A DNA stretch of 64,000 nucleotides from Candidatus Poribacteria bacterium (GTDB lineage: Bacteria > Poribacteria > WGA-4E > WGA-3G), in the NCBI GenBank assembly GCA_965198235.1, contig OZ240248.1, positions 4,512,001 through 4,576,000 of the forward strand, written 5' to 3'. Of this stretch, positions 6,159 through 59,356 are shown piece after piece. The notes below the pieces were generated by a model. That model made no database searches, was not told where the DNA came from, and worked only from the letters and a program-made list of their open reading frames with translations. A program made the translations under genes and the position numbers. Every line of letters starts with the position of its first letter. The stretch's first letter is position 1.

Positions 6159-6331
6159 TTTTTTAACTATGGGCTCCTGGGCAAAGAAACACCGTTTTTG
6201 CTTGGGGTGTTTTTGCTTGGGTATTTCTGCGTATTGCTTGGGGTTTTTGCTTGGGAATTTCTGCGGATTTCCCTGCGGATTTCTTAAGCAAAAACCCCTC
6301 CACTTCGTTTCGGGCAGGTTTTCGGTTAATT
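6159..6331 (-). repeat. Start-codon-abutting structured element, copy A (interrupted by TTTTGCTTGGG repeats)
   Basis: Minus strand: aattaaccgaaaacctgcccgaaacgaagtgga-[~115 nt insert]-gcccaggagcccatagttaaaaaa-ATG(cysS). Confidence 0.8.
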
Positions 6332-6361
6332 TCATGCTGCGTTTGCTATCGGCTCGGTTTC

Positions 6362-6479
6362 TACGGTAGATTCCAGAATTAATTGGACATTGTGACCGAT
6401 GCGTTTGCGGCACCCACAAAGGTGGCAGCCACAAGGGCACCCCCTACAAGATGTTTATTTATTTTTAGAATTCACCATA
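6362..6479. mobile_element. Degenerate MITE-like element with imperfect TIRs, containing a GTAG-type palindrome
   Basis: tacggtagattccagaattaat versus reverse complement of 6458-6479 (tatggtgaattctaaaaataaa); internal ...acaagggcaccccctac. Confidence 0.4.
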
Positions 6480-6504
6480 AATACACAGAGGAAAACAAAA
6501 ACAT

Positions 6505-6978
6505 CTATAGCCGAGAAAGGCAGGCGGTAGCGTGAGCGACAATCGCTTTTCCCTCACCGACAACGCCCAATTCTTCCGATGTGGTAGCCTTAACGTTTAC
6601 CTGCGCCACGGCAATATCAAGCGTTTTGGCAAGCCTTGCGCGCATCTCCGAAATGTAGGGTGCCAATTTCGGGCACTGCGCGATAACTGTACTGTCTATA
6701 TTTTCAATCTGGTAGCCACACTGTCTCACTTTCGCTGCGGCATCACCAAGGAAAATAAGACTGTCCATTCCTTGATAACAATCATCTGTATCGGGAAAAT
6801 GTGTGCCAATATCACCGAGTGCGGCTGCTCCTAAAATCGCATCTACGATTGCGTGGGTCAGGACATCCGCATCTGAATGTCCTAACAATCCCAAATGATA
6901 TGAGATCTCAACGCCACCGAGAATCAATTTTCTATCAGAGACCAATCGATGAACGTCGTAACCAATACCTACTCGCAT
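6505..6978 (-). CDS. ispF: 2-C-methyl-D-erythritol 2,4-cyclodiphosphate synthase
   Basis: [29 protein letters not shown] and NVKATT motifs. Confidence 0.97.
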
Positions 6979-7037
6979 TCTTTCTCTTACATTTTCACTA
7001 CAGAGATTTATGAAAAATGGAGGAAACAGAAAAACAT

Positions 7038-7754
7038 CTACCAAAGGGTAGCATCTGAGATCAACACTTCAGCCACTCGCAAATCAATGGGTGTAGTTAT
7101 CTTTAGATTCGCGTAACTTCCCTGCACCAACTTAACAGGAAAACCGAGCTGTTCAACAAGAGAGGCATCATCAGTGGCTGTAAGTTGGCGCGTTTGCGCT
7201 GCTTGATGTGCCTCTTCTAAAAGAGATTTCCGAAAGACCTGAGGTGTTTGCACCGCCCACAGCTGATCACGCCCCGGTGTTTCAACAATGAAACTGTCTT
7301 GGTTGGCGACTTTAATTGTATCCTTGACTGGAACAGCAGCAACAGCAGCACCACACTCGTCTGCCGCGGTGAGGCATGCGAAAATTATCTCATCCGTCAC
7401 AAAAGGACGCACCCCATCATGGACAATTACAAAATCAACATCTGACGACAGGGCACGTACACCGTTATAGACGGACATCTGACGGGTTTCTCCTCCCTCA
7501 ACAAGTTCCTGCACCTTTGTAAACGGATAGGGACACAACACAGCGGCTCGACACTCACTAAAATCGTCTTGGTCAACAATGACGAAAATCGCGTCCACAG
7601 CACTATTTTGCTCAAACCGCTGAATAGTATGTGCCAAAATTGGCTTTTGCGCCAATTTTAAGTACGGCTTTTTAACCGAATGCGCCATCCGGCTTCCTTT
7701 ACCAGCTGCGGGGATAAGAGCGCATACCTTGCTGTTCATCAGTGTCCATTTCAT
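7038..7754 (-). CDS. ispD: 2-C-methyl-D-erythritol 4-phosphate cytidylyltransferase
   Basis: [35 protein letters not shown] and NLKITT motifs. Start 7754 or 7739. Confidence 0.96.
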
Positions 7755-8727
7755 TTTCTTTTATTCGCGTGAAAATCATTTGACCTGCACTCGTCCGTAA
7801 CATTTGTGTAACCTCAACGTTAAGGGTACTTCCGATGTACGGCTTCCCATCTTCAACAATTACCATTGTTCCATCATCAAGATAGCCAACTCCCTGATTC
7901 GGTTCCTTGCCTTCTTTCAGGAGAAGCACTTGGATTACCTCACCGGCAATGACGACAGGACGGACAGCATTTGACAATTCGTTGATATTGAGGACTTTCA
8001 CACTCTGCAATTCAGCGACTTTGTTGAGGTTTAAATCATTTGTGATAATCGTTGCCTCTCGCTGTTGTGCGAGATGAACCAACTTTGCATCAACTTCCGG
8101 CAAATGCGGTACTTCTTCCTCTGAGATCTCAACATCAATCGCTGGGTTGTTCTGAAGCGCGCGGAGAATATCGAAACCGCGCCGTCCTTTATTTCTGCGT
8201 AGTGGTTCCGTTGAATCCGCAATATGTTGCAGTTCATTGAGAACAAACCGTGGAATGACAAGTGTGCCTTCAATAAATCTCGTTTGACAGATCTCAAGAA
8301 TTCTGCCATCAATAATAACACTTGTGTCTAAAATTTTGAAGTTACTTGCAGTTTGAACCGAACGTGACTCGCCAGGACGAGCAGACGCACTTGATCCGAG
8401 TAGTTGGCTTAAATCCAGTGTCGTAGAGAGATGGTAACCCCCCATCATGCCCACGTAACCGAGACTGAGAACAATCACTATCTTTAGATTACCATCAAGT
8501 TGTGAAAGCAGAGGTAGTATGGCGAGAGAGACTAATAGACCTACAGCAAGCCCCATCAGACTCGCAATGATGCTACGCACGCTGGGTGTACGCAGACAAA
8601 TTTCTGCCCCAACAAGCAGAAGGGCAACAACAAATCCGACAACCGCTGCGATCGGGTCCCTGTAAATGATATAGCAGCTTGCCGCACTTGCAATTATAAA
8701 AAAGAGACGGATACCCCAAACTTTCAT
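7699..8727 (-). CDS. PIN/TRAM domain membrane protein (YacL family)
   Basis: N-terminal TM helices; ILDTSVIIDGRI, TND.NLNKVA and GVGYLDDGTMV motifs; radA-yacL-ispD synteny. Confidence 0.92.
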   Translation of the reverse strand: MKVWGIRLFFIIASAASCYIIYRDPIAAVVGFVVALLLVGAEICLRTPSVRSIIASLMGLAVGLLVSLAILPLLSQLDGNLKIVIVLSLGYVGMMGGYHLSTTLDLSQLLGSSASARPGESRSVQTASNFKILDTSVIIDGRILEICQTRFIEGTLVIPRFVLNELQHIADSTEPLRRNKGRRGFDILRALQNNPAIDVEISEEEVPHLPEVDAKLVHLAQQREATIITNDLNLNKVAELQSVKVLNINELSNAVRPVVIAGEVIQVLLLKEGKEPNQGVGYLDDGTMVIVEDGKPYIGSTLNVEVTQMLRTSAGQMIFTRIKENEMDTDEQQGMRSYPRSW

Positions 8728-8745
8728 TTTTTCTACTCCATTAAT

Positions 8746-8834
8746 AGTTAACAGTTGTCAGTTGTCAGTTGTCAGTTAAGAGGTTTTCGTTTAGCAATCC
8801 CCCCTTTTAACTGCTAACTGTTAACTGACGGCTA
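8746..8834. repeat. Heptamer tandem repeats forming an inverted hairpin
   Basis: (cagttgt)x3 followed by taactgc-taactgt-taactga. Confidence 0.7.
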
Positions 8835-8839
8835 TCTAA

Positions 8840-10201
8840 TCACAGCAAAGCCCCGAGAGTGTCATATACGTCGCTAACACCCACAAGTTCAATATCCTCG
8901 TCAATTTCCAAGCCTTTCCGGTTATATTCAGGAAAGATCACTCGTCTGAAGCCTAACTTCGCGGCTTCCCGGATTCGTCTCTCAACATGCGTTACGGGAC
9001 GAATTTCACCACCCAGCCCAACTTCACCGATCACAACAGTCTTCCGATCGACAGGGAGATCGCGATGACTTGAGGATATTGCCATCATCACACCGAGGTC
9101 TATACCGGGTTCATCAATGCGTAACCCGCCCGTAATGTTAACAAAGACATCAGAATCTCCAACGTTAATTCCCACCCTTTTATTAAGTACCGCAATGAGC
9201 AAAGCAATCCGGTGTCGGTCCACCCCAGCTGCCGTATTGCGGGGGTTTCCATAATGTGTAGGCACGACGAGTGCCTGAACTTCCATGAGTAAGGGTCGGG
9301 TCCCCTCTATACTTGAAACTACGACGGATCCTGAAACTTCTTCCTCCCTGTTGCTTAAAAAGAGTTCTGACGGATTCATCACATCCACAAGACCTGTGCT
9401 CTGCATCTCAAAGATTCCGATCTCATTCGTGGAACCGAACCGATTTTTGATCGCTCGAAGAATGCGGTAAATGTGGTGCTGTTCACCTTCAAAATAGAGG
9501 ACAGTATCCACCATGTGCTCTAAAACGCGAGGACCAGCGAGTGCCCCTTCCTTTGTCACATGCCCGACGAGAAACACCGGGATATTCCGATTTTTTGCAC
9601 AAATTAGGAGATGTCCGGCACACTCACGAATCTGAGTGACGCTCCCAGGTGCAGACGGGATACTCGACAAATAAACCGTTTGTATAGAATCGACGATGAC
9701 CACCTTCGGTTCTCGCGCCTCAATATACTTTTCAATCTGCTCCAAATTGTTTTCACACAGCACATAGAGCGTATCAGACGCAACGCCGAGCCGAGTCGCA
9801 CGGAGTTTCGTCTGACTCACAGATTCCTCACCGGAAACGTAAAGCACATCTCCGTAGTTCCGGCTCAATGCGTCACCGGCTTGTAGTAACAAGGTAGATT
9901 TGCCTATCCCTGGATCGCCGCCGATAAGGATCACAGAACCAGGCACAATCCCACCACCAAGTACTCTGTCAAACTCCAACATCCCAGTTAGATGTCGTTC
10001 CACTTCGTTTGCTGTAACTTGCGAAATGGGTTCAGGTTCGCGAGACACTTGCCCGATATCACGATGTTTCGATAGTGTCGTGAGGGTCTCTATTTCTTCG
10101 GCGAAACTCTGCCAACTTCTACAACTCGGACACCGTCCGAGCGTTTTTGGTGTTGTATATCCACACTCTTGACAGACAAATTTACGTTTCTCTCGTGCCA
10201 T
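8840..10201 (-). CDS. radA: DNA repair protein RadA/Sms
   Basis: CQECG...CPSC zinc finger, GGDPGIGKS, KNRFG and Lon-like C-terminal domain. Confidence 0.97.
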   Translation of the reverse strand: MAREKRKFVCQECGYTTPKTLGRCPSCRSWQSFAEEIETLTTLSKHRDIGQVSREPEPISQVTANEVERHLTGMLEFDRVLGGGIVPGSVILIGGDPGIGKSTLLLQAGDALSRNYGDVLYVSGEESVSQTKLRATRLGVASDTLYVLCENNLEQIEKYIEAREPKVVIVDSIQTVYLSSIPSAPGSVTQIRECAGHLLICAKNRNIPVFLVGHVTKEGALAGPRVLEHMVDTVLYFEGEQHHIYRILRAIKNRFGSTNEIGIFEMQSTGLVDVMNPSELFLSNREEEVSGSVVVSSIEGTRPLLMEVQALVVPTHYGNPRNTAAGVDRHRIALLIAVLNKRVGINVGDSDVFVNITGGLRIDEPGIDLGVMMAISSSHRDLPVDRKTVVIGEVGLGGEIRPVTHVERRIREAAKLGFRRVIFPEYNRKGLEIDEDIELVGVSDVYDTLGALL

Positions 10202-10264
10202 TTTTTTAACTATGGGCTCCTGGGCATCGCTCCACTACGTTCCGCGATGGTTTTCAGTTAATTC
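10202..10264 (-). repeat. Start-codon-abutting structured element, copy B
   Basis: Minus strand: gaattaactgaaaac-catcgc-ggaacgtagtgga-gcgatg-cccaggagcccatagttaaaaaa-ATG(radA). Confidence 0.85.
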
Positions 10265-10334
10265 TGACGCGACTGGGGATATGTACGCTTTTTAAGACTT
10301 CTTTCCGCTCCATCGGTTGTCCGGACGATCTGAA

Positions 10335-10366
10335 GTAGGAAGTCGCGAGCTGGAGCTCGCTCCTAC
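10335..10366. repeat. GTAG-type REP-like palindrome
   Basis: gtaggaagtcgcgagctggagctcgctcctac. Confidence 0.65.
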
Positions 10367-10397
10367 AGAAGAACTGAATAACCCTACATCGTTAATA

Positions 10398-11960
10398 CTA
10401 CCACTCACCACCAAAAAAGCGAAATCCTGTTGTCCAACGCCGCTCACCGGTCAAATTCTCTGCCCCAATCAGGAGTTGCCCATATCGGAAGAACCGGACC
10501 GCCACTTCCGCGTTCAACTCGGGTTCCCTGCTTGTCAACCCTATCCCTTCAACACTGATGCCGAAACGTCGGGACCACAACCACAAATCCAGCCCCGCGC
10601 CGACTTTGGAACGCATGAATCCTGCACGCGCCCGAAGAAAGTCAGTTACATCATGTGCATACTGAAACTCAAACCGAACCTTCTCATCTCGAACACCTAT
10701 CCCGAACCTATAGTGTGCGTTGGGTCTGCGAGAAAGTGAAAACGCCAGTTCATTGTAAAGTCGCTCTTCGAGACTTAAGTAGCGGAGTTCATAATCCCAG
10801 TTAAACCGGGGTGAATCAAGACGCTCCAACTGCTTCTCAGTTTTTTGAGAGAGTTCCGTTACCGCGCTCATCGTTTCGTCGACATTTTGCAAGGTTCGCC
10901 TGACATCTTCAAGCGGTTCCGGTGTGTTTAGCAATTGCGCGACAGTCCCCTCACCCTCATTAAGCGTGGTAAGAAAACGATTGACGCTCGCCTCCAAAGC
11001 AGCGATCGAAGCAGTCGTTGCCTTTAGGTTCTCTAAGATAGGTGCGATATTGGCTTCTCCGGTTTCAATAGCACTACTACTTTGCGAAACAAGGGCAGAA
11101 ACCTGTGCCGCTAACGTGTCGAAATCTGAGCGAAAATCCTGTGTTATCCGTCGAAATTCTGATGTTGTTGCACGAATATCGGTAAAAATAGTGTTGAGTT
11201 TCGGTGAATTCTGATTCAGGAGCCTCAAGAGTTCACGTGTAATGTCACTTATTTGACTGCTCACCATCAGAGAATCGCCTTCTAACTGTGTTATAAGGTT
11301 ATTTACCTTTACGAGGGTCCCCTGAAACCGCCTATCGTTTTCTAAGGCGAGTTGTGTTAAAGTTCGTACCGTCTCTTCAGAGTCAACGCTTAACTTCTCA
11401 ATAGTTTTTCCAGTGAGTGCGACGACCTCGCGAATCTCTTTGATGGCGAGTTGAATCGCTTCCTGGTTCGCTTGGAGCACCTCATTCGCAGCCGTTGTGA
11501 GTTCAATAGCCTGTGTCATACCAGCACTTGTCTGCTCAAGGAGTTCCAAGGCATTCACAGGATCTTTTCCAACAATCGGCAAGTTCGCTGGTTTTAATAT
11601 CGGGTTCCCAACTGCTCCATTGTCAAGAGCGATATAAATTTCACCGACAAACCCATTCATAGAAATTCTGGCACCACAGCCCTCCCTCAACCACTCAAAT
11701 GCGTTTTTGACTTTCGCCTTGATGTGCACATTATCAGTCTCAGGATGGAGCTCAATAGCCGTTACTTTGCCAATTGGGACACCATATAGGTAAACTCCTG
11801 CCCCGACATAAAGCCCGTTGACAGAACGAAATTGAAACGTCAGTTTATCACCAGTAGTTGCCCACGGCCAATTCTCCGCATTTGTAAGAAGGATTGTCAG
11901 GAATACGATGGCAACGAGAATCATTACACCGACTTTTACAGAAGCTGTCCAAAAGTTCAT
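10398..11960 (-). CDS. MCE/MlaD family protein with long helical region and C-terminal beta-rich domain
   Basis: N-terminal TM; F.SVNGL..GA.V...GV.IGKV MCE motif; in an operon with MlaE/MlaF homologues. Confidence 0.85.
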   Translation of the reverse strand: MNFWTASVKVGVMILVAIVFLTILLTNAENWPWATTGDKLTFQFRSVNGLYVGAGVYLYGVPIGKVTAIELHPETDNVHIKAKVKNAFEWLREGCGARISMNGFVGEIYIALDNGAVGNPILKPANLPIVGKDPVNALELLEQTSAGMTQAIELTTAANEVLQANQEAIQLAIKEIREVVALTGKTIEKLSVDSEETVRTLTQLALENDRRFQGTLVKVNNLITQLEGDSLMVSSQISDITRELLRLLNQNSPKLNTIFTDIRATTSEFRRITQDFRSDFDTLAAQVSALVSQSSSAIETGEANIAPILENLKATTASIAALEASVNRFLTTLNEGEGTVAQLLNTPEPLEDVRRTLQNVDETMSAVTELSQKTEKQLERLDSPRFNWDYELRYLSLEERLYNELAFSLSRRPNAHYRFGIGVRDEKVRFEFQYAHDVTDFLRARAGFMRSKVGAGLDLWLWSRRFGISVEGIGLTSREPELNAEVAVRFFRYGQLLIGAENLTGERRWTTGFRFFGGEW

Positions 11961-11961
11961 G

Positions 11962-12741
11962 CTATCTCCCCAAATATTTCTTCAAAATGGGATTTTCCAT
12001 GTTGAGAATCTGGTCCGGTGCTCCAAATAGAATGAACTGTTGCAAAATGGGATCGTCGATGTTGATAATTTCATCTGGACCGCCGTATGCGATCTGCCTA
12101 CCTTCATGAATCATAGCCATCCGTGTTGCGACACTGAAGGCACTGTGCATATCATGTGTAACCACAACGGAAGTGACTTGCAGCCTCTCGTGGAGATCTC
12201 TAATAAGTTGATTGATTTCCGTGCAGGTAACCGGGTCAAGTCCGGTTGTAGGTTCATCGTAAAAAATAACCTCCGGATCAAATGCCAGGGCGCGTGCGAG
12301 TCCAACCCGTTTTCGCATACCACCACTTAATTCAGCGGGACGCAAGTCCTGGACACCTTCTAAATCAACAAGACTGAGTTTCTCGTCAACAATCTTGCGT
12401 ATTTCTCGCCTGTCAAGATTTGTATGTTGATCCAGCATAAAAGCGACGTTCTCTGCGACAGTCATCGAATCAAAGAGGGCAGCAGACTGAAACAGCATTC
12501 CAACCTTTCGGCGGAGGACGTTCATCTTTTTGCCGTTTAGGTTCGATATTTCTGTTCCATCAAACCAAATCTCACCGGAATCGGCGGACATCAGTCCTGT
12601 GATAATCTTTAGGAGTACACTCTTACCACACCCGCTTTGTCCCATAATCACGAGCGTCTCACCACGTGGAATTTCAAGGCTTAGTTCGTTTAAAACGTTT
12701 TTGCCTCCAAAATTTTTGGTGACATTCCTAATTGAAATCAT
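11962..12741 (-). CDS. mlaF: MlaF/Mkl family ABC ATP-binding protein
   Basis: GQSGCGKS, LFQSAALFDS, LSGGMRKRVGLARA and YDEPTTGLDP motifs. Confidence 0.9.
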   Translation of the reverse strand: MISIRNVTKNFGGKNVLNELSLEIPRGETLVIMGQSGCGKSVLLKIITGLMSADSGEIWFDGTEISNLNGKKMNVLRRKVGMLFQSAALFDSMTVAENVAFMLDQHTNLDRREIRKIVDEKLSLVDLEGVQDLRPAELSGGMRKRVGLARALAFDPEVIFYDEPTTGLDPVTCTEINQLIRDLHERLQVTSVVVTHDMHSAFSVATRMAMIHEGRQIAYGGPDEIINIDDPILQQFILFGAPDQILNMENPILKKYLGR

Positions 12742-12794
12742 CTTTTTAATTATGGGCTCCTGGGCTGCCTTCCACTACGTTTCAGGCAGGTTTC
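12742..12794 (-). repeat. Start-codon-abutting structured element, copy C
   Basis: Minus strand: gaaac-ctgcc-tgaaacgtagtggaa-ggcag-cccaggagcccataattaaaaag-ATG(mlaF). Confidence 0.85.
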
Positions 12795-12850
12795 TGGTCC
12801 GTCCAGACGAACCTTGGTAAAAATAACGCTCAGATCTCAGAGACGGTGGG

Positions 12851-12911
12851 GATTCACTGGAAACCACCGCGTAATGTAATGGAGCGGTGCCCAGGTGTTA
12901 ATAGTTTAAAA
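12851..12911 (+). repeat. Diverged copy E of the same element, back-to-back with copy C and abutting the mlaE stop codon
   Basis: gattcactggaaac-caccgc-gtaatgtaatgga-gcggtg-cccaggtgttaatagtttaaaa. Confidence 0.7.
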
Positions 12912-13736
12912 TTATACCAACCCCAAAATGTTAAAGAGTATATGATTCAAGACAAAATCCAAAACGAGAATCGCAATAAGAGAGATTACAGCAGAGCCAG
13001 TCGTCGCAATTCCGACCCCCTCTGCGCCGCCTGCTGTCGAGATACTAAACCCCTTGTAGCAGCCGACCGCAGCAATTGCCATCCCGAAAGAGGTCGCTTT
13101 AATCAAACTAATGAGCACGCTTCCGACAAAAAGATTCTTCTGCACTTCCAAGAGAAAAAAGGAGCCATTTACATCAAATAGCGTAACAACGGCGACAAAA
13201 CCACCAGCGATGCCCGCAAACGTCGAATAGATTGTAAGTGTCGGTAACATCAGAGAACACGCGAGAAAACGCGGCACAACCAGATATTTGACTGGATTTG
13301 TGCCCATCACCTTAAGCGCGTCAATTTGCTCCGTAACCTTCATCGTTGAAAGCTCAGCAGTAATTGATGCCCCGATACGTCCGGCAAGCACAAACGCAGT
13401 AATCATCGGACCGAGTTCCTTCACGACTGAAACACAGACGAATCTTGCCACCGATCCTTCCACCGCATAAGGTTTGAGCTGAATGTACCCCTGAACACCC
13501 AATACCATCCCCGTGAAAAACCCGGAGACAATAACAACAGCCAAAGAATTGAAACCGATCAATAACAACTGCTTAACTAACAGATCAAACTGAAAGGGAG
13601 GACGGAAAATTTGGATAAGGGTTTGAAAAAAGAGCGTAAAGGCTTGTCCTATCTCGGAAAGCACGTTGTGCAACCGAATCTTAACCAAATCAGGGAACCC
13701 ATTAGGGGCTTCGTGTATAGTGGACTGCTGCTCCAT
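12912..13736 (-). CDS. mlaE: MlaE family ABC permease
   Basis: KELGP..TA..LAGR.GA.ITAEL.TMKVTEQIDAL motif; GA.GVG.ATT. Confidence 0.92.
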   Translation of the reverse strand: MEQQSTIHEAPNGFPDLVKIRLHNVLSEIGQAFTLFFQTLIQIFRPPFQFDLLVKQLLLIGFNSLAVVIVSGFFTGMVLGVQGYIQLKPYAVEGSVARFVCVSVVKELGPMITAFVLAGRIGASITAELSTMKVTEQIDALKVMGTNPVKYLVVPRFLACSLMLPTLTIYSTFAGIAGGFVAVVTLFDVNGSFFLLEVQKNLFVGSVLISLIKATSFGMAIAAVGCYKGFSISTAGGAEGVGIATTGSAVISLIAILVLDFVLNHILFNILGLV

Positions 13737-13809
13737 ATTTTCTATTTTTTAATACAATTGCTGATAGCCAATTCAGGGAGATGTCCGATTCTTAAGGCTT
13801 TTTATCCGC

Positions 13810-15141: not shown

Positions 15142-15143
15142 AA

Positions 15144-27709: not shown

Positions 27710-27883
27710 ACATAGCACTCCGCTGGAGTGCGGTTGCGGTCGGTTCATTTTTCTATAGACATCTTGCTCCGCTGGAGCAAAGAGACGGACCCCTCATAAG
27801 TCAGGGGCTGTCCTCACGCCAGAGGCGTGATATGTCTATAGAAAATGGATGGACCCTTTACGCACTCCAGCGGAGTGCTATGT
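27710..27883. repeat. Long inverted REPIN-like element
   Basis: acatagcactccgctggagtgcg...ttttctatagacat and atgtctatagaaaa...cgcactccagcggagtgctatgt. Confidence 0.8.
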
Positions 27884-50589: not shown

Positions 50590-50675
50590 ATTTCTAACGC
50601 CTTCCTTTGCAATATCTATCAGTTTAGCACATCCTATGACTTTCTGCCAACCCCCAACGAGTGTCTACCAAATTG

Positions 50676-50860: not shown

Positions 50861-51534
50861 CACATATACTCCCTAAATTCCGGGAGTTCAGCGTCAAAAT
50901 CGTCAGCGATCTTGATAAGTCCTTTGAGGGTTCCTGCTTGACGCGGTGGTTGCAACGTCTTTAGGCCCTCCCCATAAAACAACTCGTGGTACTTCACATA
51001 CATCTTATCTAGCAATTTAAAGCAGTCCTTGAATTCCTTGAACATTGGCGCAGTTTTCACTTCGTGCTTTTCCAAATAGGCAAGTCGTTCATCAGCAAAC
51101 GCTTCGCACGCTTCTAACGCCGATGTCAGTTGTGCTATATCTTCGGTGATCATTTGTGGACAAATATGCGCGTCCATAACGTCCGTGCATGAAGCAGCGT
51201 TCGTTACATTATTCAGATCTGAACGGACAGAATCAAAGTAGGTGCGGGATAACTCTTGGGGATTTTCAGCAATCTCATGGAGCAATCCTACAAAGGAAAT
51301 AGACTTTTTATAAGGTTTAATTTGCCGATAAAGCCTCGCAAGCGCATGATTCAGATACGAGCGCTCAAGATATCCATAGTGGAAGTCTTGGGTACGTTGA
51401 TGTCCATGAATGATAATTCGGATCTCCCAGAATACTCTGGCATCCTGAAGCAGGAGCCGAATCTCTGGTTCAATAGCCTCCATCCATTCACGCCACTTCT
51501 GAAGCTTCGGACTCGTTAATTTTTTTTCACTCAT
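50857..51534 (-). CDS. AbiU2/HEPN-like helical protein fused to a DUF2281/VapB-like C-terminal tail
   Basis: Y......L.R......SIS...LL..I and ADERLAY segments; tail PRQAGTLKGLIKIADDFDAEL.EF.EY typical of antitoxins preceding vapC. Confidence 0.55.
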   Translation of the reverse strand: MSEKKLTSPKLQKWREWMEAIEPEIRLLLQDARVFWEIRIIIHGHQRTQDFHYGYLERSYLNHALARLYRQIKPYKKSISFVGLLHEIAENPQELSRTYFDSVRSDLNNVTNAASCTDVMDAHICPQMITEDIAQLTSALEACEAFADERLAYLEKHEVKTAPMFKEFKDCFKLLDKMYVKYHELFYGEGLKTLQPPRQAGTLKGLIKIADDFDAELPEFREYMW

Positions 51535-51631
51535 AAGTCAATTCTCCTCAAACGAAAGTGCACGGTTGTAGCGAAGAACTTACCAAATTTGAGTACTGCG
51601 GGCTAAAACATGCCTTCACCATTCTGCTAAG

Positions 51632-51700
51632 ATTATACACGTTCTCGTAGTGGATGTCAATTTTTTAATACTTGACAATCCCAGAAAGAAGCCTTAAAAT
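51632..51700. promoter_or_regulatory. Back-to-back divergent sigma70 promoters
   Basis: Minus strand TTGACA-17-TATAAT (51660-51632); plus strand TTGACA-17-TAAAAT (51672-51700). Confidence 0.7.
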
Positions 51701-51736
51701 ACTCCCAAACTCAATATGAAATAAAGGAGCACTGCA

Positions 51737-52594
51737 ATGGAGAAATTTCCGATCGTTGATACGCACGTTCACCTATGGCACCCGGAACAGTTGAGATACC
51801 CCTGGCTGACGGAAGTCCTAGTCCTAAACAGACCTTATCTCCTAAAAGATTACAACGACGCGTCCAGCGAATTGGACATCGAATCCATCGTCTTTGTCCA
51901 GTGCGATACACACCCCGATGACGGTTTGAAAGAAACAGCGTGGGTTACCGATCTCGCAACGACAGTAGAGCCACGGATTCAGGGCATTGTTGCATGGGCA
52001 CCGCTCGAAGAGGGAGAACAGGTGGCACCTTTCGTTGAAAAATTGGCAGAGAACCCACTCGTCAAAGGTATACGCCGCCTCATCCAATCCGAAAACGTTG
52101 ACTTTTGCATCCAACCCGACTTTGTGAGCGGTGTTAAAACACTCTCCCGCTACGGATTGAGCTTCGATATCTGTATCTTCCACCCACAACTCGCCAATGC
52201 CATTCGGCTCGTGGAACAGTGTCCGCACGTCCAATTCATCTTAGACCACATCGGTAAACCCGACATCAAGAACCAACACTTTGATCCATGGAAACAGGAA
52301 ATCCAAACACTTGCGATGTTCCCGAATGTCCATTGTAAAATATCAGGTTTGGTAACGGAGGCTGATCTCAAAGCATGGACACCTGCCGATCTACAACCGT
52401 ATATTGAACACGTTATTACCTGTTTCGGCTTTGATCGCGTTATATACGGTAGCGATTGGCCCGTCTCCACACAAGCCTCAGATTATCTGCGATGGGTACA
52501 GACATTGAGAGAGGCTGTATCCGGCTGCTCATCCGAGGAGTTAGGTAACCTCTTCCGCAACAACGCCATTAGATTCTATAGACTTGCCGAATAA
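51737..52594 (+). CDS. Amidohydrolase family protein (L-fuconolactonase-like)
   Basis: VDTHVHLW, KG.R, LDH.GKP, CKISG and FG.DR..YGSDWPV motifs. Confidence 0.88.
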   Translation: MEKFPIVDTHVHLWHPEQLRYPWLTEVLVLNRPYLLKDYNDASSELDIESIVFVQCDTHPDDGLKETAWVTDLATTVEPRIQGIVAWAPLEEGEQVAPFVEKLAENPLVKGIRRLIQSENVDFCIQPDFVSGVKTLSRYGLSFDICIFHPQLANAIRLVEQCPHVQFILDHIGKPDIKNQHFDPWKQEIQTLAMFPNVHCKISGLVTEADLKAWTPADLQPYIEHVITCFGFDRVIYGSDWPVSTQASDYLRWVQTLREAVSGCSSEELGNLFRNNAIRFYRLAE

Positions 52595-52596
52595 AA

Positions 52597-52636
52597 AGAG
52601 AAGGGAAGGATGCCTCGTACACCCTTCCCTTCTTTC
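52597..52636. terminator. Putative bidirectional terminator hairpin
   Basis: agaagggaagg...ccttcccttct with A-rich and T-rich flanks. Confidence 0.55.
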
Positions 52637-52697
52637 ACTTTTCTATCCTCTCGTCATCTTTAGTAACGTGAGTCCGATTTAAGCATTTATTCGACTC

Positions 52698-52721
52698 GGA
52701 GCGGTTACAAACCGCTCCTAC
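52698..52721. repeat. GTAG-type REP-like palindrome
   Basis: ggagcggttacaaaccgctcctac. Confidence 0.55.
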
Positions 52722-52747
52722 CGGATTTGGGAACTCGCCTGACTTTC

Positions 52748-54931
52748 TTAACCTCCGGCTTTAACCTCTCGCCGACGCGGATGCAGCACAAACTCGGTAT
52801 ACCCGTTTGGTAACTCACACCCTTTAAAAACCAAGTCCAAAGCCGCTTGGAATGCGACGCTCTGATCGTAGTTCGGCGACATATCCCGATAATTCGGGTC
52901 ACCGGCGTTCTGTTCGTCAACGATCTTCGCCATCCGTTGGAACGTCTCCGTCACTTGCTCCCTTGTGACGATCCCGTGGCGCAACCAATTTGCGATATGT
53001 TGACTCGAAATCCGCAGTGTCGCTCGATCCTCCATCAACCCGACGTTGTTAATATCCGGTATCTTCGAGCAGCCAATTCCTTGGTCAACCCATCGGACGA
53101 CGTATCCCAAGATACCTTGCGCGTTGTTGTCTAATTCGCGCTGAATCTCATCGGGTTGCAACTGGTGATCCTTCAACAGAGGTGGTGTTAGTAAATCCGC
53201 CAAACTCGCACGCTGTCTCGCCGACAATTCCTTTATCCGGTTTGCAACGTCAACCCGGTGGTAATGCATCGCATGAAGCGTTGCGGCTGTCGGCGATGGC
53301 ACCCACGCCGTTGTCGCACCCGCCAACGGGTGATTCACCTTCGTTTCAATCATCTCTGCCATCTGGTCAGGTTTCGTCCACATCCCCTTCCCAATTTGTG
53401 CAGTGCCGAGCAACACGGTTTCAATCCCTATATCAACGTTCCAATCCTCATAAGCGAGCATCCAGGGTTCGTTGCGGATGTCCATTTTGGGAATCATGGC
53501 TCCCGCTTCCATACTCGTATGGATTTCATCGCCGGTCCTATCCAAAAACCCGGTGTTAATAAAGACGAGACGCTCCTGTGCCACCCGAATCGCCTCTTTG
53601 AGATTGACGGTCGTCCGCCGTTCCTCATCCATAATCCCGATTTTAATAGCATTGGTCGGAAGCCCAAGTGCAGACTCTATCCATTCAAACAGCCGAATCG
53701 TCATCTCCACTTCTTCGGGTCCGTGGAACTTCGGCTTGACGATGTAAATACTACCTGTTTTGCTATTGGTGCGGGGACCCTTGCCCTGCAGGTCATGCAT
53801 TGCGGCGAAACTCGTTATCATGGCATCGAGAATGCCTTCCGGGATCTCCTCACCTTCTGCTGTCGTGACGGCATCCGTGTACATGTGGAGTCCAACGTTC
53901 CGAATCAGGAGCAGGCTCCTGCCCGGTAACGTCAACGTCCCTCCATCGGGTGCGGTAAACGTCTTATCGGGTGCAAGGCGACGGGTAAGCATTTCGCCGT
54001 TTTTCTCGAACGTTGTCTCCAATGTTCCCTTCATGATACCGTTCCAATTGCTATAGACGCGCACCTTGTCTGCCGCATCCACTGCCGCGACGGAATCCTC
54101 GCAATCTTGAATCGTCGTGATTGCCGACTCAAGGATAACATCGACAACACCGGCAGGATGTGCCTTTCCAACGGGGTGTTCTCGGTCTATCTGTATTTCA
54201 ATGTGTAACCCGTGGTTTCGGAGCAGAATAGCACTCAGTCCACCATTGCTCTGCGTAAAACCTACAAATTTGGTCGGATCGGCTAAACCGACTTCGCTAC
54301 CATCACTGAGTGTTGCGCGTAACTGCTGCTCGCCATGAACGGTTATGAGGGAAAATCCCGTAACGTCAGAGAAACTTCCAGTTTCAAGTCCGGTCATTTC
54401 ATCTAAAAACTTTTCAGTGTCCGCGATGACTTTCGCACCTCGGATCGGGTTATAGGCAGTCCCTCGTGTAGCCCCATCCGATTCGTCGATGACATCGGTG
54501 CCGTAGAGTGCATCGTAGAGGCTTCCCCAACGAGCGTTCGCTGCGTTTAGGGCATAGCGGGCGTTATCGGTCGGGACAACCAATTGTGGACCTGAGATGA
54601 GCGAAATCTCTGTGTCAACGTCTTCAGTAATCACAGTAAAATCTCGTCCTTCGGGGAGCAGATAGCCTATATCCGTCAGAAATGCCGAATACGCCTCACC
54701 GTCCAACGGTTCATCTTTGCGTGCCAGATGCCACGCGTCAATCTGCTGTTGGAGCGTATCCCGTTTCTCCAAGAGTGCCTTGTTTTCTGGTGCGAACGCC
54801 GCAACGATGTCACCGAACGCTTTCCAGAAGGCATCTGCCTCTACCCCCGTGCCGGGAGCGATCTCATCTCTTACTAATGCGTACAAATCTTCATCTATCC
54901 TGAGATTACCGATTTCAATCCGGTTTCCCAT
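52748..54931 (-). CDS. glcB: Malate synthase G
   Basis: [48 protein letters not shown] and [14 protein letters not shown] motifs; start MGNRIE at 54931. Confidence 0.96.
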
Positions 54932-55082
54932 ACTCTTTTCTCCATTCCAAGGTGCTGTTAAGGTGTTGGATATCCGTTTGCCGATGCTTCGTTGCACCGG
55001 CAAACAATTCCGCCTGAATTGTCAAATATCATAACAATATATCTGTAGTCTGTCAATTGTTTTTTTTATAAATTATGGCTTT

Positions 55083-55871
55083 TTAGTTTTTGGTTATCTT
55101 CTTGATGGGGGATTTTCGCCGATCCTTCCGCCGCAATTTAAACACATCGCTTGTCTGTTCAATGTGTTTAACACGATCCAGGAAGTGCAAGCGCATGGGG
55201 GCCGCAGATTTATAATGCGGGTTATCCACAAAAACATCTGGTTCGCCTAACAATTCGCTGATGAGACCTTTTGTCCAACCACGTTCAGAGATGAGCCGTG
55301 CCTGGGTGATTTTTTCTTTCTCACGCACTGCCTTGCCTGCTGCAGCTTTCTGCTGCTTTTCGGTTTGCCACAACATTTTGAAATCGTCTGAACGTTCGAC
55401 TTTGCGAACATCGGATTTTAGATAAATTGGATAGGTTAAGCACCCTCCTAAAAAGGGCATAGAGAAAGACTCACACGACAAGAATCTATCTACGCGTTCG
55501 GGTGTCCAATGTCCACGCCTCGACAATTCTTCGTGCGAAAAGTGGGTGTCGGGATGTTCTTCTATTTCTATATTCCAAATCTCGCAAAATCTTCTTCGCA
55601 TTGAGACCTTGTGGAAATTCTCAAGCATCAATTTTTTTTCTGCTTTCTCAATATCATTGTAACGAAATAGCCGAACCGTATTTAAATCCTTTACTGTAAT
55701 CACAGTAACATCACCTACCGTTCTCCTTAATTTTCTTCTTTCGACTTCAAAATCAAGGAGTCGTGATTCAGAGAGAATCGTGCCACGTTTTCCGAGTTGG
55801 GATTTGGTGATGTATCCATCTTTTCTGATCGTAAAATTACGCGCGGGTCTCCGATGTTTTTGCTGTTTCAT
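55083..55871 (-). CDS. Basic hypothetical protein with three XPA-C/MerR-like repeats
   Basis: Repeats of IT...L..RG(W)T......L...(NPH...PM.L)....V..E; promoter TTGGCA-17-TATAAT at 55925-55953. Confidence 0.55.
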   Translation of the reverse strand: MKQQKHRRPARNFTIRKDGYITKSQLGKRGTILSESRLLDFEVERRKLRRTVGDVTVITVKDLNTVRLFRYNDIEKAEKKLMLENFHKVSMRRRFCEIWNIEIEEHPDTHFSHEELSRRGHWTPERVDRFLSCESFSMPFLGGCLTYPIYLKSDVRKVERSDDFKMLWQTEKQQKAAAGKAVREKEKITQARLISERGWTKGLISELLGEPDVFVDNPHYKSAAPMRLHFLDRVKHIEQTSDVFKLRRKDRRKSPIKKITKN

Positions 55872-55993
55872 GCTGAATACCTCCGGGCAGTTTTGTGTCG
55901 TGCTCAGGACGGTTTCAATATCAGATTATACGACACTTTTAGGCAATTGCCAACTCCTTTTTGACCGAAGCACCCACACCCTTCTCATGCGAC

Positions 55994-56022
55994 TTGCAAA
56001 AATATAGAACTTGTGTTAAGAT
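55994..56022 (+). promoter_or_regulatory. Sigma70-type promoter of thiC
   Basis: TTGCAA-17-TAAGAT. Confidence 0.55.
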
Positions 56023-56144
56023 GTTAAGCGGAGTAGAGACTTCATCTTTCTCACTGAAGCGAAACACAATACGGACGGTGTGAAAAGCCGCGCCGCAGAA
56101 TGACTGCAACAGATGCGCAGACAATTAACATAAATGCAAACTGA

Positions 56145-58115
<1,971 letters not shown>

Positions 58116-58190
58116 CACCGCGAGCCATTCCCAATCAGCGAATTTACACAATTTTGCGTAATTCTTGTCGTATGAATAAGGAACAACATA

Positions 58191-58931
58191 ATGAAAGCGT
58201 TAAGTATTGGATTGGGTATACTTCTCTTCACCTCCTCTGTTTGGGCTGGTACATTTGTGGAAACTTTTGATGAGGATGTTTTAGCGGATTGGCAGGCACT
58301 TAACGCGCATGATGCTGCACTCGGTTCGTGGGAAGTCGTTGATGGTGAACTTGAGATGATAAACCCTGGAGGGGGTATCCGTTTACTTACGACGGGTGAT
58401 GAAACATGGCAAGATTACAGTATCGAGGTTAATGTCAAACCTCTTGAAAAACGCGGCCCCGGAAATATCAGTATTGTCGCACGAGTTGAAGGAAGCCGGG
58501 TAGTTTGGTGTACGATTAGTGATCTTTTCTTAAACGATCCTGAATCAAAAGCGATGTGTAGCAGTCGTGACTTTGCTGGAAACATAGGTCAATTGCTGTC
58601 TATGAAAGCTCATCGGCTTTTAAAATTGAATAAATGGTCTAAACTCAAGTTGAGCGTTAGAGGAGATCACTTCATTTTTTTGATAAATGGAAAGAAAATT
58701 ATGGAAACAGGAGATCCTTTTATCCTTCTACATGATGGTGAAGAACTCATGATAAAAACAAAAGACCTCGCGTCCCACCCGACAGGCGGTGCCGGTTTCG
58801 GTCTCGCGAATTATACAGCGAGATTCGATAATATCACCATCACCGGTGAGAGTATCCCAAACAAGGGTGGATTATCGGTATCACCTCAATCAAAACTCGC
58901 AACGACTTGGGGACAGTTGAAGCAGTTTTAG
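58191..58931 (+). CDS. Secreted DUF1080/concanavalin-like protein with KLATTWGQLK C-terminal motif
   Basis: Signal peptide; W..VDG.L, W.DY.IE, W..LKL.V.G and FDNI.ITG motifs. Confidence 0.7.
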   Translation: MKALSIGLGILLFTSSVWAGTFVETFDEDVLADWQALNAHDAALGSWEVVDGELEMINPGGGIRLLTTGDETWQDYSIEVNVKPLEKRGPGNISIVARVEGSRVVWCTISDLFLNDPESKAMCSSRDFAGNIGQLLSMKAHRLLKLNKWSKLKLSVRGDHFIFLINGKKIMETGDPFILLHDGEELMIKTKDLASHPTGGAGFGLANYTARFDNITITGESIPNKGGLSVSPQSKLATTWGQLKQF

Positions 58932-58934
58932 ACA

Positions 58935-59158
58935 TTAGCATTCACGGGCGGGGAGGCGTTTCTGCCTCAGGAATCGATTAAGTTGATCATGATTCCATTT
59001 CGGGGTATGTGCTGCGAAGTACGTCTGCGTGAGGTCATGGAAATTTGCTAACAGAAATTGGCAATAATCCACTAATAACGGTTGCTTCCTTTCAGAAGGG
59101 GTTAAGGTTTTCATAATGTCAGAGTATGACACAATTTTAAATTATTGTGTAAGTCCTA
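58935..59158 (-). mobile_element. IS701-like transposase 5' remnant with left TIR TAGGACTTACACA
   Basis: DYCQFLL......TQTYFA.H...W.HDQLNRFL N-terminus, truncated; TIR at 59146-59158 matches the MITE ends. Confidence 0.65.
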
Positions 59159-59187
59159 AATTTAAAGGGATAATGTGGGGTGTCCAT

Positions 59188-59250
59188 TGTCTGAATCCGG
59201 ATTTACAGGATTATGTAGCCGGAAGTCGGGATTCGGAGATACCTCCTACA
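59188..59250. repeat. TGTCTGAATC-type repeat plus GTAG REP-like palindrome
   Basis: tgtctgaatccggatttacaggatt; related copies at ~29165 and 62194-62287. Confidence 0.5.
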
Positions 59251-59293
59251 AGGCGAATCTACGTTAAGACCGCACAAATCCTTAAGCACGCTC

Positions 59294-59356
59294 GAATTAA
59301 TCCAAAACCTGCCTGAAACGAAGTGGAAGGCAGTCCAGGAGCTCATAGTTAAAAAA
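59294..59356 (+). repeat. Start-codon-abutting structured element, copy D
   Basis: gaattaatccaaaac-ctgcc-tgaaacgaagtggaa-ggcag-tccaggagctcatagttaaaaaa-ATG. Confidence 0.85.

Follow-up and report, generated by a model that had tools for sequence, protein, structure and literature searches.

A hairpin repeat family of Candidatus Poribacteria with many copies at start codons

Repeat copies in the analysed window

The window, that is, the whole 64-kb stretch of DNA that was analysed, contains five copies of a hairpin repeat, named F1. All five had been noticed in a preliminary description and were found again at those positions by reading of the letters and by a pattern scan, which revealed no sixth copy in the window. 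Copy A (6159..6331, minus strand) precedes cysS, identified by the Pfam domain tRNA-synt_1e. Its 3' box and A-run (6159-6181) adjoin the cysS ATG (6156-6158), the 5' box lies at approximately 6317-6331, and nested GCTTGGG/TTCTGCG repeat modules add about 110 nt to the loop. The ispF gene (YgbB, Pfam) lies upstream of cysS on the same strand. The cysS ORF stays open through copy A as far as a GTG at 6440. Copy B (10202..10295, minus strand; 85.1 bits with the covariance model) consists of a canonical 63-nt core (10202-10264), adjoining the ATG (10199-10201) of radA, and a 5' extension TTAAAAAGCGTACATATCCCCAGTCGCGTCAGAATT at 10265-10295; the radA-type domain set was recognised by Pfam.

Copies C and D form a head-to-head doublet. 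The sense arm, copy C (12742..12804, minus strand, 77.8 bits), adjoins the ATG (12739-12741) of a gene encoding an mlaF-type ABC ATPase (Pfam). The antisense arm, copy D (12850..12912, plus strand, 73.9 bits), has a variant box and a stem, CACCGC, unlike that of copy C. Its tail runs as far as the mlaE stop codon (12912-12914), in agreement with its earlier description as an inverted copy abutting this stop. The coordinates proposed initially differ slightly from those of the covariance model, which extends copy C beyond 12742-12794 and places copy D at the positions given here. Copy E (59294..59356, plus strand, 80.9 bits), with a 5' extension upstream of its core, adjoins the ATG (59357) of a Gfo/Idh/MocA oxidoreductase gene (Pfam). 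In copies A, B, C and E exactly 6 nt separate the motif CATA(G/A)TT from the ATG, and the AGGAG motif reported 15 nt upstream of the ATG is seen in the letters. The pattern scan also found, at 374..391 on the minus strand, a box CCGCAAGGAAAATTAAAA of a second repeat family, F2, which is a start-codon leader like F1.

Size, range and anatomy of the family

Hairpin geometry alone identifies 284 short-loop copies of F1, with conserved flanks, in the 5.17-Mb genome of this Candidatus Poribacteria bacterium, a sponge symbiont, and the covariance model gives at least 150 matches there. Within the genus, F1 was observed in 43 of the 44 genomes sampled; in the sister genus one of 32 genomes has it, and in the rest of the phylum (44 genomes from 17 other genera) none. 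Another scan of the genus found it in 18/18 genomes. The number of matches per genome within the genus varies from 0-2 to more than 100. These scans of the genome and its relatives bear out the initial view of a dispersed, lineage-restricted element rather than a chance resemblance. The possibility, also raised initially, that the motif belongs to an already described family found no support in Rfam: there were no matches at the gathering score in the window, and none at E up to 1 for 20 of the 40 canonical F1 copies.

The hairpin is 25 nt long. It has a 6-bp stem, of which ten or more versions exist, and a conserved loop of 13 nt with an apex formed by a 2-bp mini-stem and a GNA triloop. Around it lie the 5' box, the 3' box (CCAGGAGCCCATAGTT) and the A-run; the stem foot has columns AAAC-C on one side and G-CCCAG on the other, and the only terminal inverted repeat is the 5-nt pair TTAAC/GTTAA. 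Other small repeats are often nested in the loop, and loop inserts of 12-199 nt were found in 58 copies, and loop-length variants show as joints in metagenome contigs. Assemblies break at F1 repeats.

Most copies (245/284) lie between co-directional genes. Paired copies are oriented head-to-head in 48 cases and in tandem in two, and no tail-to-tail pair was found. The spacer of head-to-head doublets has a modal length of 30-31 nt, and the stems of the two arms are never alike. The stretch from the core to the upstream stop codon is a mosaic that varies among loci.

Register with start and stop codons

An ATG opening an ORF of at least 80 codons lies within +/-2 nt of the expected place at 70 of the 284 copies, compared with 280 of 20000 random positions (1.4%). 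The fixed distance to the ATG seen earlier in the window therefore holds genome-wide as an approximately 18-fold enrichment, but it characterises only a minority of copies. The density of F1 ends at 0/-1 nt from an ATG is about ten times that at 3-60 nt, with 57 copies at positions 0/-1 and scattered ones and twos elsewhere. The upstream gene is on the same strand for 67 of the 70 in-register copies. In other genomes of the genus, the best model match is in register in 7/9 cases.

AGGAG boxes are enriched in in-register copies (23/43 vs 47/241, odds ratio 4.7, p = 1e-5), and the 3' box is marginally closer to its consensus in them (0.648 vs 0.603, p = 0.05). A similar difference in the 5' box (0.739 vs 0.688, p = 0.048) suggests that copy age may account for part of the AGGAG effect. 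Apart from F1, the Shine-Dalgarno spacing of the genome is normal: starts with GGAG have a peak at -13 to -10 and a second peak, comprising 110 genes, at -19/-18, which matches the F1 box; the 16S tail is canonical. The second codon is AAA in 24% of F1-served and 28% of F2-served genes, compared with 15% of genes with canonical Shine-Dalgarno boxes (p = 0.04 and 0.003, respectively).

The F2 family is unrelated to F1 and behaves in the same way at start codons: 59 of 186 F2 boxes have an ATG at exactly +2, and the two families have in common the tail A(T/A)TTAAAAA and the register. Counting short-loop copies only, a repeat end stands in place of the Shine-Dalgarno region in about 70 F1 and 79 F2 genes, or about 3.7% of approximately 4000 ORFs, including the housekeeping genes cysS, radA, atpH, thiD and ispH. 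Gene callers that rely on Shine-Dalgarno spacing will misplace such starts, for instance that of cysS, open to the GTG at 6440. The genes served by F1 have diverse functions: a scan of 40 out of 69 gave Pfam matches for 37, which belong to unrelated pathways. A regulon is not supported.

Most copies outside the ATG register lie antisense. In 43 of the 214 copies without an ATG in register, the tail TTAA contains the stop codon of an ORF (at least 100 codons) on the opposite strand. An opposite-strand stop lies within -12 to +10 nt of 86/214 copies, compared with 110/5000 random positions. Among single copies between co-directional genes, 95 are sense and 68 antisense.

Replacement of native initiation regions

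Relatives that have no repeat at radA, atpH, thiD and mlaF possess a normal Shine-Dalgarno box or an overlapping stop and start at the same ATG. F1 has therefore taken over the native initiation region of the four genes. The radA start ATGGCACGAGA is identical in 26/26 relatives, whereas the sequence upstream of its ATG contains F1 in two of them, F2 in eight, and neither in 16. In two distant relatives mlaE and mlaF are separated by -1 or 9 nt, whereas 23 others have 58-299 nt of repeats between them; the ancestral gap was probably -1 to 9 nt. Upstream of atpH and thiD, an AGGTGA or GGAG-type Shine-Dalgarno box lies 3-10 nt before the same ATG in 5/5 genomes of the sister genus and in 5/5 low-copy genomes of the same genus. 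In the present genome, the whole stretch between the atpF stop and the atpH ATG is occupied by an F1 doublet; the C-terminus of the atpF product reads ISRLPIS* in place of ISRLPADSR*. The relatives compared are about 87% identical in DNA. At an L9-like gene (about 15598 in the window) the ancestral spacer is approximately 70 nt, and thus the position of a repeat against the ATG is not forced by a tight junction alone.

Because relatives have a Shine-Dalgarno box or an overlap at these places, an in-register F1 copy must supply whatever initiation region the served gene uses. The suggestion that the element brings its own initiation region, made in the preliminary description together with a proposal to look for repeat-less orthologous sites, therefore stands as far as replacement is concerned: such sites exist at radA and mlaF, and also at atpH and thiD. 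That the box itself drives initiation is a further step. AGGAG at 15 nt is too far for a textbook Shine-Dalgarno box; initiation via the F1 box is putative. Among sequenced relatives, one and the same start codon can be found free of repeats, preceded by F1 or preceded by F2. These natural before/after pairs bear both on initiation with a Shine-Dalgarno-like motif 15 nt away and on the tolerance of tightly coupled operon junctions to invasion.

The hairpin: RNA structure or DNA repeat

In the 40 canonical copies, 96.6% of stem cells are paired, compared with 70.7 +/- 1.6% in shuffles, of which 0/500 reach this value; sliding the partners gives 57.5% or less. Changes on both sides are seen in six of eight stem pairs, and RNAalifold independently predicts the same structure. 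The covariation that had been taken as selection on structure is thus real. However, it does not point to RNA, since the mismatches in the stems show no excess of G:U. The stems are 95.9% Watson-Crick, and mismatches among 1266 pairs are distributed as 13 G:T, 17 A:C and 22 others. Folded together with its flanks, a single copy is no more stable than shuffled sequences (z = +0.82); its minimum-energy fold omits the consensus stem.

One could still assume that F1 works mainly as a cis-acting RNA. Binding of a protein to the hairpin, or its cleavage by an RNase, would then control, process or stabilise many intercistronic mRNA segments in a co-ordinated way, as a lineage-wide post-transcriptional regulon. 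The conserved 13-nt loop on stems that vary yet stay paired is in line with this assumption, as is the position of the hairpin directly 5' of intercistronic start regions with a same-strand gene upstream (67/70). Moreover, the C/D doublet folds as a single foldback (z = -2.2; 3/200 shuffles are as stable), and the pairing of doublet arms covers the CCCAGG part of the box. A contig from an RNA library covers copy C and mlaF, but this is a weak indication, as DNA carry-over is possible. The expression runs are assembled contigs that show no RNA ends or levels. Against an RNA function, in addition to the mismatch spectrum and the poor folding of a lone copy, one has to set the mixed orientation of single copies (95 sense, 68 antisense), the lack of a common theme among the served genes, and the variation in copy number within the genus, which is the pattern of a selfish repeat and not of a fixed regulon. 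Further, this genome has no CsrA gene, and F1 has no counterpart in Rfam. All this makes a chiefly RNA-level role unlikely.

The explanation that we prefer, and consider rather probable, is that F1 is a genus-restricted, non-autonomous interspersed repeat with a REP/BIME-like build that serves as a start leader. Such a repeat would colonise the short spacers of co-directional genes. In a sense copy, the 3' box and A-run would come to lie 0-1 nt from the downstream ATG, displacing the native Shine-Dalgarno box and spacer, and the copy would act as a portable translation-initiation leader with an unstructured A-rich tail and an AGGAG lying 15 nt away, which is not a canonical spacing. In an antisense copy, the tail TTAA would lie at, or provide, the TAA stop of the upstream gene. 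The exact register would then arise because copies breaking either reading frame do not survive in tight junctions, the survivors being only those whose ends keep both frames working. The hairpin may matter as DNA, for instance by serving as the substrate of a hairpin-recognising enzyme. Points that count against this explanation are the long AGGAG distance, the only marginally better 3' box of in-register copies, the roomy ancestral spacer at the L9-like gene, the loss of native spacer on both sides at atpF-atpH, and the outcome of the search around the Y1 transposase genes described below, which revealed no linked mobilising enzyme.

Possible modes of spread

The preliminary description had considered a mobile element that targets translation starts. 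A dedicated enzyme would recognise the junction 5' of the ATG or the A/T-rich spacer between the Shine-Dalgarno box and the ATG, and antisense or non-register copies would be decayed or secondary. The tenfold peak of F1 ends at 0/-1 nt agrees with targeting, and so do the same tail and register in two unrelated families and the occurrence of F1 or F2 at one gene start in different species. However, in-register copies make up only 70/284, single copies occur in both orientations (95/68), and the same tail is found at stop codons in antisense, which fits tolerance at ORF boundaries better than recognition of the ATG. The target duplications and flanking transposase gene that were to be looked for did not appear. 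No duplication was observed at the 33 doublets inspected, and no autonomous parent element was found, as the four candidate pairs of inverted boxes all have single-copy interiors. The genome contains six Y1_Tnp transposase genes; the flanks of all six contain other REPs or IS605 parts, and a search of five of these loci with the F1 model found no F1 (best E = 0.13). Finally, native sequence is gone on both sides of the atpF-atpH doublet, which plain cut-and-paste insertion fails to explain. Dedicated targeting of start codons is accordingly very improbable.

The loss of the native atpF-atpH spacer, where the doublet replaces everything from the last atpF codons up to the atpH ATG, would be natural if break repair or gene conversion transferred copies of whole intergenic cassettes, reaching from stop to start, from one operon junction to another without a transposase. 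The copying would be anchored by microhomology at TAA and at A-rich sequence plus ATGA/ATGAAA. The absence of duplications, a parent element and a linked enzyme in the searches described above is consistent with this, as are the enrichment of AAA second codons in F1- and F2-served genes and the finding that closely related species may have either F1 or F2 before one and the same ATG. On the other hand, the AAA enrichment is modest, and selection for A-rich starts in genes lacking a Shine-Dalgarno box explains it equally well. At about 87% DNA identity between the species, simple insertions may have been followed by a remodelling of the junctions, and the mosaic core-to-stop region, differing by locus, argues against fixed cassettes. 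We regard cassette copying as unlikely.

A bolder combination, to which we likewise give little credence, is that the spacers of this genus are exchangeable cassettes bounded by stop and start codons and pasted by microhomology without a transposase, and that about 150 F1/F2 genes start without a canonical Shine-Dalgarno box. Initiation would then depend on AGGAG or AAGG held 12-15 nt away, or on cleavage of the AUAGUUAAAAAA tail by an RNase, which would leave a very short A-rich leader. If true, nature would here have produced standardised, portable parts for translation initiation on the scale of a whole genome.

Comparison with known systems

The REP/BIME and REPIN repeats of proteobacteria are short hairpins present in hundreds of extragenic copies, mostly between co-directional genes. 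REP/BIME sequences have several stem types and form regular clusters of alternating orientation, mosaic with other motifs; in REPs, one foot of the palindrome bears a conserved tetranucleotide, GTAG or CGTC, and the arms of REPINs have a common stem. F1 resembles REPs as a short extragenic palindrome with more than 100 copies, and BIMEs in its alternating copies with regular spacing. However, its stem foot has neither GTAG nor CGTC (GTAG occurs only within the loop of some variants), its doublet arms never have the same stem, and it does not flank RAYT-like Y1 genes. In the same genome, RAYT-like Y1 transposase genes are flanked by classical REPs. F1 also stands in register with starts and replaces native Shine-Dalgarno boxes, whereas a start-codon register or a replacement of ribosome-binding sites is not known for REPs.

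MITEs such as Correia/NEMIS of Neisseria and ERIC of enterobacteria are small, non-autonomous, often intercistronic elements co-transcribed with the flanking genes, which sometimes provide expression signals at variable distances to start codons. F1 is also small, non-autonomous and often intercistronic. Apart from TTAAC/GTTAA, however, its ends form no inverted repeats, and neither a duplicated target nor a related insertion sequence was found. In Nostocaceae, small dispersed repeats reportedly insert into hairpin repeats; the very small modules nested in F1 loops are similar, the likeness concerning these loop passengers and not F1 itself.

To our knowledge, repeats bearing translation start signals have been seen in few cases, REP2 of Neisseria and IR of Borrelia, with their spread unexplained. 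These appear to be the closest precedents of F1. As described by Delihas (2011, PMC3184786), REP2 (CREN) and the plasmid repeats IR-A/IR-B of Borrelia are dispersed sequences of about 120-180 bp directly upstream of unrelated ORFs, with a ribosome-binding site beside the ATG and stem-loops towards the 5' end; they are termed fusions of a translational start site with ORFs. According to the same account, they have negligible common sequence, no obvious terminal inverted repeats and no known mode of spread, and REP2 is promoter-bearing and present in about 26 copies (PMC3184786). In F1, sigma-70-like sites are absent from the sense copies A, B and C; copy D has one, a 9-of-12 match, in antisense. 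The region as a whole contains 14 such sites vs 9.0 +/- 3.5 in shuffles, with a consensus that may not be that of Poribacteria. Compared by description, about a quarter of F1 copies are likewise a repeat fused to a translational start. F1 differs from REP2, as the latter is described, in having about 300 copies, mostly between co-directional genes, and from both REP2 and IR in its antisense copies that abut or supply stop codons, in its REP-like head-to-head doublets, and in the position of its Shine-Dalgarno-like motif 15 nt from the ATG. The phenomenon is much larger here than in Neisseria REP2 or Borrelia IR.

Anatomy and extent of the F1 family

The five copies of the hairpin repeat F1 listed in the preliminary description are all present in the window (positions 6159-6331, 10202-10264, 12742-12794, 12851-12911 and 59294-59356), and a pattern scan of the window found no sixth. 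On the strand of the gene that it faces, a copy consists of a 5' box (AATTAACCAGAAACC), a 6-bp stem, a 13-nt loop G-N-A-A-(C/T)-G-N-A-(G/A)-T-G-G-A, the complementary stem, a 3' box (CCAGGAGCCCATAGTT) and an A-run; the ATG follows. The tail contains the sequence AUAGUUAAAAAA. By Pfam matches, copy A faces cysS, with ispF upstream, and copy B faces a radA-type gene, with an mlaD-type gene upstream. Copies C and D form a doublet between mlaE and an mlaF-type ABC ATPase gene, and the remaining copy neighbours a Gfo/Idh/MocA oxidoreductase gene.

The loop of copy A (6182-6296) holds about 110 nt of the short units TTTTTGCTTGGGG and TTTCTGCG(G/T)A in several repeats. The same unit repeats occur upstream of mlaF in L052, the matching region of a relative, and several length variants of the loop were observed in metagenome contigs (joints 6173-6190 to 6287-6298). 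At least three further small modules, e.g. ATTGTCCCGCAAGCCTCTATAGGCTTGCGCA, recur within F1 loops elsewhere. The cysS frame (4743-6440, minus strand) is open through the entire copy A to a GTG at 6440, giving 565 aa versus 471 aa from the ATG at 6158. As the 3' box has stops in just two of the three frames, gene callers may extend F1-served genes such as cysS too far. Upstream of copy B (10296-10400, minus strand) is a palindromic repeat, TGTAGGAGCGAGCTCCAGCTCGCGACTTCCTACA, that also occurs at other loci of the genome and in relatives.

When copies are defined by hairpin geometry alone (the loop motif enclosed by a stem with no more than one mismatch), the host genome (5.17 Mb, 48% G+C, 96% complete), in which the window occupies G000:C1 4512001-4576000, contains 284 short-loop copies. 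Both boxes emerge in their flanks, although they are not part of the definition. Like copy A, about 58 more copies hold 12-199 nt of other small repeats in the loop. With a covariance model based on 40 canonical copies, at least 150 matches were found in this genome. The model matched 18 of 18 same-genus genomes and, in three other families within the order, none of 12; in a phylum-wide draw, matches were found in 43 of 44 same-genus genomes, 1 of 32 from the sister genus and none of 44 across 17 other genera. The number of matches per same-genus genome varies from 0-2 to more than 100. The Rfam search proposed in the preliminary description produced no matching family at the gathering score, and 20 of the 40 canonical copies matched none even with E relaxed to 1. 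Listings of openly accessible literature showed no account of repeats in Poribacteria.

Position relative to start and stop codons

A copy was considered in register if an ATG opening an ORF of at least 80 codons lies within 2 nt of the expected position. The supposed fixed distance to the ATG holds in the sense that 70 of the 284 copies are in register (33 at 0 and 24 at -1), far above random (280 of 20000 positions), but the majority (214 of 284) are not. All but three of the 70 have an upstream gene on the same strand. The genes served have unrelated functions: 40 of 69 were scanned, 37 of these had Pfam matches, and the products include ATP synthase delta, IspH, ThiD, KsgA, transketolase, a RecN-like protein, aminotransferases, cytochromes and a sigma-54 regulator. 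The best model match per genome is in register in 7 of 9 other genomes of the genus, a sample biased because best matches are the most consensus-like copies.

Copies with an exact AGGAG are in register more frequently (23 of 43) than those without it (47 of 241; odds ratio 4.7, p = 1e-5). The 5' box is also slightly closer to the consensus in in-register copies, and thus copy age may contribute to this association. Judging from its position, the box may drive translation initiation, with AGGAG at 15 nt, beyond normal Shine-Dalgarno (SD) spacing. Such spacing is not a trait of the whole genome, as the main peak of GGAG before start codons is at -13 to -10, the ordinary distance, and the 16S tail is canonical; a separate small peak at -19/-18 (110 genes) matches the F1 box. 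A leaderless-mRNA promoter within the box, with CATAGTT as the -10 element, was also considered. The match to the consensus is poor and the scan found no site, the consensus used being sigma-70-like and possibly not that of Poribacteria.

Many of the out-of-register copies lie at stop codons. In 43 of the 214, the reverse-complement stop of an opposite-strand ORF (at least 100 codons) is at -8/-7, within the TTAA of the tail, and an opposite-strand stop within -12 to +10 nt was observed in 86 of the 214 versus 110 of 5000 random positions. Copy D, noted earlier as abutting the mlaE stop codon, belongs to this class, with the stop in or near the tail. Thus the same A/T-rich end of F1 meets ORF boundaries in both orientations, starts in sense and stops in antisense. 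Single copies between co-directional genes are sense in 95 cases (50 in register) and antisense in 68.

Hairpin structure

The stem covariation from which selection on structure had been proposed is real. Among the 40 canonical copies, 96.6% of stem cells are paired versus 70.7 +/- 1.6% after shuffling (0 of 500 shuffles reach the observed value), and slid-partner controls give at most 57.5%. Six of eight pairs change on both sides, among them a 2-bp mini-stem at the loop apex (A-C/G-T or A-T/A-T), and RNAalifold independently recovers the same structure.

However, a conserved RNA is not the favoured reading. The covariation consists of swaps within a limited set of ready-made stems (CATCGT, CTGCCC, CACCGC, CACCGT, CTGCCT, CTGCGC and others). 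Perfect stems were found in 168 of 225 copies picked without use of the stem, and the 211 stems with at most two mismatches contain 1214 Watson-Crick, 13 G:T, 17 A:C and 22 other pairs. An RNA helix read on one strand should favour G:U over A:C, and no such preference is seen, which argues against conserved RNA. Shuffled sequences fold as well as a single copy plus flanks (z = +0.82); a doublet outdoes them (z = -2.2) through pairing between its two arms. The apex C-GNA-G is the motif of very stable DNA mini-hairpins. The mismatches, the folding and the apex motif are more readily explained by a DNA-level hairpin, or by stem types simply being inherited, than by a conserved RNA. CsrA-type control through the GGA of the loop and that of the box was ruled out, as the 96%-complete genome has no CsrA gene.

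Doublets and candidate mobilisers

Among copies less than 300 nt apart, 48 pairs are head-to-head, their 5' boxes pointing at each other across a spacer that is most often 30-31 nt long; two pairs are tandem and none is tail-to-tail. The two arms never have the stem in common and their box variants usually differ, an arrangement that resembles the alternation of REP types in BIMEs. The F1 core abuts nothing at its 5' end: the upstream stop is mostly 60-200 nt away, with a 5' extension, the other arm of a doublet or further repeats in between. Assembled contigs from four metagenome or RNA-library runs have depth spikes at repeats, break there and contain repeat-derived joints.

The genome contains six Y1-transposase genes (coordinates on the host contig, G000:C1). 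Three encode RAYT-like proteins of 159-163 aa (about 606918-607262, 1898775-1899119 and 3853757-3854101) and are flanked by classical REPs, GCACYCC-AGCG/GTAG-GGRGTGC then TATGTCTATAGA. The other three encode IS200/IS605-type TnpA of 139-149 aa (about 119838-120191, 4381488-4381841 and 4792784-4793137), each with a downstream partner ORF; two of them are near-identical, flanks included. F1 adjoins none of the six, and neither RAYT nor IS200/IS605 was retained as its mobiliser. Nor was a parent insertion sequence found: inverted 3' boxes do not enclose any multi-copy element. The window holds RAYT-type REPs in a small cluster (27718-27875), and at a few places such a REP is joined to the 3' half of an F1 hairpin.

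TTAA is present at both ends of F1 and at the start of the 5' extension, as a duplicated target would be. However, in individual copies CTAAC pairs with GTTAG and TTAAT with ATTAA, an inverted and not a direct relation. No target duplication was found at the doublet flanks, and the empty radA and L9-like sites of related genomes and the window have no TTAA at the right place; the search for target duplications was thus negative. The AAC...GTT ends resemble those of integron attC. The 7-nt and 13-nt segments beside the hairpin are unpaired, and F1 copies are not in cassette arrays; an attC relationship appears unlikely.

Other repeats in the same spacers

A second family, F2, has the consensus ...TACGGAnAGGCACGT...ACCGAA-CCGCAAGG(T/A)AAAATTAAA and is unrelated to F1; only the tail A(T/A)TTAAAAA is common to both. 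Its box occurs 186 times genome-wide, including a copy in the window (374-391, minus strand). An ATG follows 0-5 nt past the box in 79 cases, exactly at +2 in 59, and the tail TTA provides an opposite-strand stop in 17. Across related species, F1 and F2 alternate at the same start codons.

A non-F1 insert of 82-84 nt (window about 4663-4748) separates a stop codon from the AAGGAG of the following gene. The matching regions L051-L053 lack it, and in two metagenome runs contigs pass over it (84 nt, joint 4663 to 4748); it is thus polymorphic among close relatives. Heptamer-type repeats (CTGATAACTGACAACTGA...) in a foldback layout fill other intercistronic gaps of relatives (L051-L061, window-equivalent 13744-13809 and 3261-3320).

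The same junctions in related genomes

Relatives retrieved via RadA were all Candidatus Poribacteria, sponge-associated metagenome-assembled genomes. Empty orthologous sites do exist among them. The radA start, ATGGCACGAGA, is common to all 26 relatives, with F1 upstream in 2, F2 in 8 and neither in 16. Genes mlaE and mlaF overlap in the most distant relative (gap -1) and are separated by 9 nt in another; in 23 others the gap is 58-299 nt of F1, F2 or heptamer repeats, and one locus is rearranged. For the L9-like gene, the window itself has the empty state (aggatttcaattATG), and seven relatives have a mosaic of an F1 half and F2 up to the ATG.

Upstream of atpH and thiD, AGGTGA or GGAG-type SD boxes are found 3-10 nt before the same ATG in 5 of 5 sister-genus and 5 of 5 low-copy same-genus genomes. 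The thiE-thiD gap is 13-19 nt in three of the five low-copy genomes, and sister-genus thiD is behind a promoter-like region. The gap before atpH is about 30-110 nt in the comparison genomes. Here, an F1 doublet fills the junction, reaching from a TAA supplied by its antisense tail as far as the ATG of atpH; no native SD is left, and the AtpF C-terminus is ISRLPIS* versus ISRLPADSR*.

At cysS, even distant species have a degenerate box (AGGAG-N15-ATG), with a hairpin part that varies between species; a metagenome variant departs from this genome 1 nt upstream of the ATG (joint 6159 to 6500). The N-termini of KsgA differ between genera. With about 81-88% DNA identity over a 13-kb region, the relatives are too distant to tell insertion and decay from replacement.

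Proposed explanation

The preliminary description had suggested either a mobile element that targets translation-start junctions and supplies its own initiation region, or a lineage-wide regulatory RNA. The observation itself was confirmed, and this interpretation is partly supported. F1 repeats may invade short intercistronic spacers. Where the stop and the start are a few bases apart, any insert would touch both, and would also part the downstream ATG from its native SD. Persistence would then be limited to inserts whose end supports initiation or ends a reading frame. Invasion with such a survival filter would explain the exact register, the preference for spacers between co-directional genes, the behaviour of a single tail at both starts and stops, and the alternative filling of one junction by F1 or F2. 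Two cases are not fully explained: the atpF-atpH junction has lost its native sequence on either side, and at the L9-like gene the ancestral spacer was about 70 nt. Given these cases, a preference for an A/T-rich stretch before the ATG, or a replacement-type mechanism, is possible.

Comparison with known repeats

F1 has neither the foot tag nor the flanking RAYT that define a REP, and neither the terminal inverted repeats nor the target duplication and parent insertion sequence that define a MITE. The closest described systems are the Neisseria REP2 and Borrelia IR repeats, which have internal stem-loops, carry a promoter, an RBS and an ATG, and lie immediately upstream of unrelated genes, their origin and mode of spread being unknown (Delihas 2011, PMC3184786). 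Compared with these repeats, F1 is more numerous (about 300 copies versus about 26 of REP2) and mostly intercistronic, forms REP/BIME-like doublets, and has antisense copies associated with stop codons; no promoter was detected in it with the sigma-70-like consensus, which may not be that of Poribacteria. Repeats fused to translational starts are a rare kind that is already known, and F1 is a new, large-scale form of such repeats.
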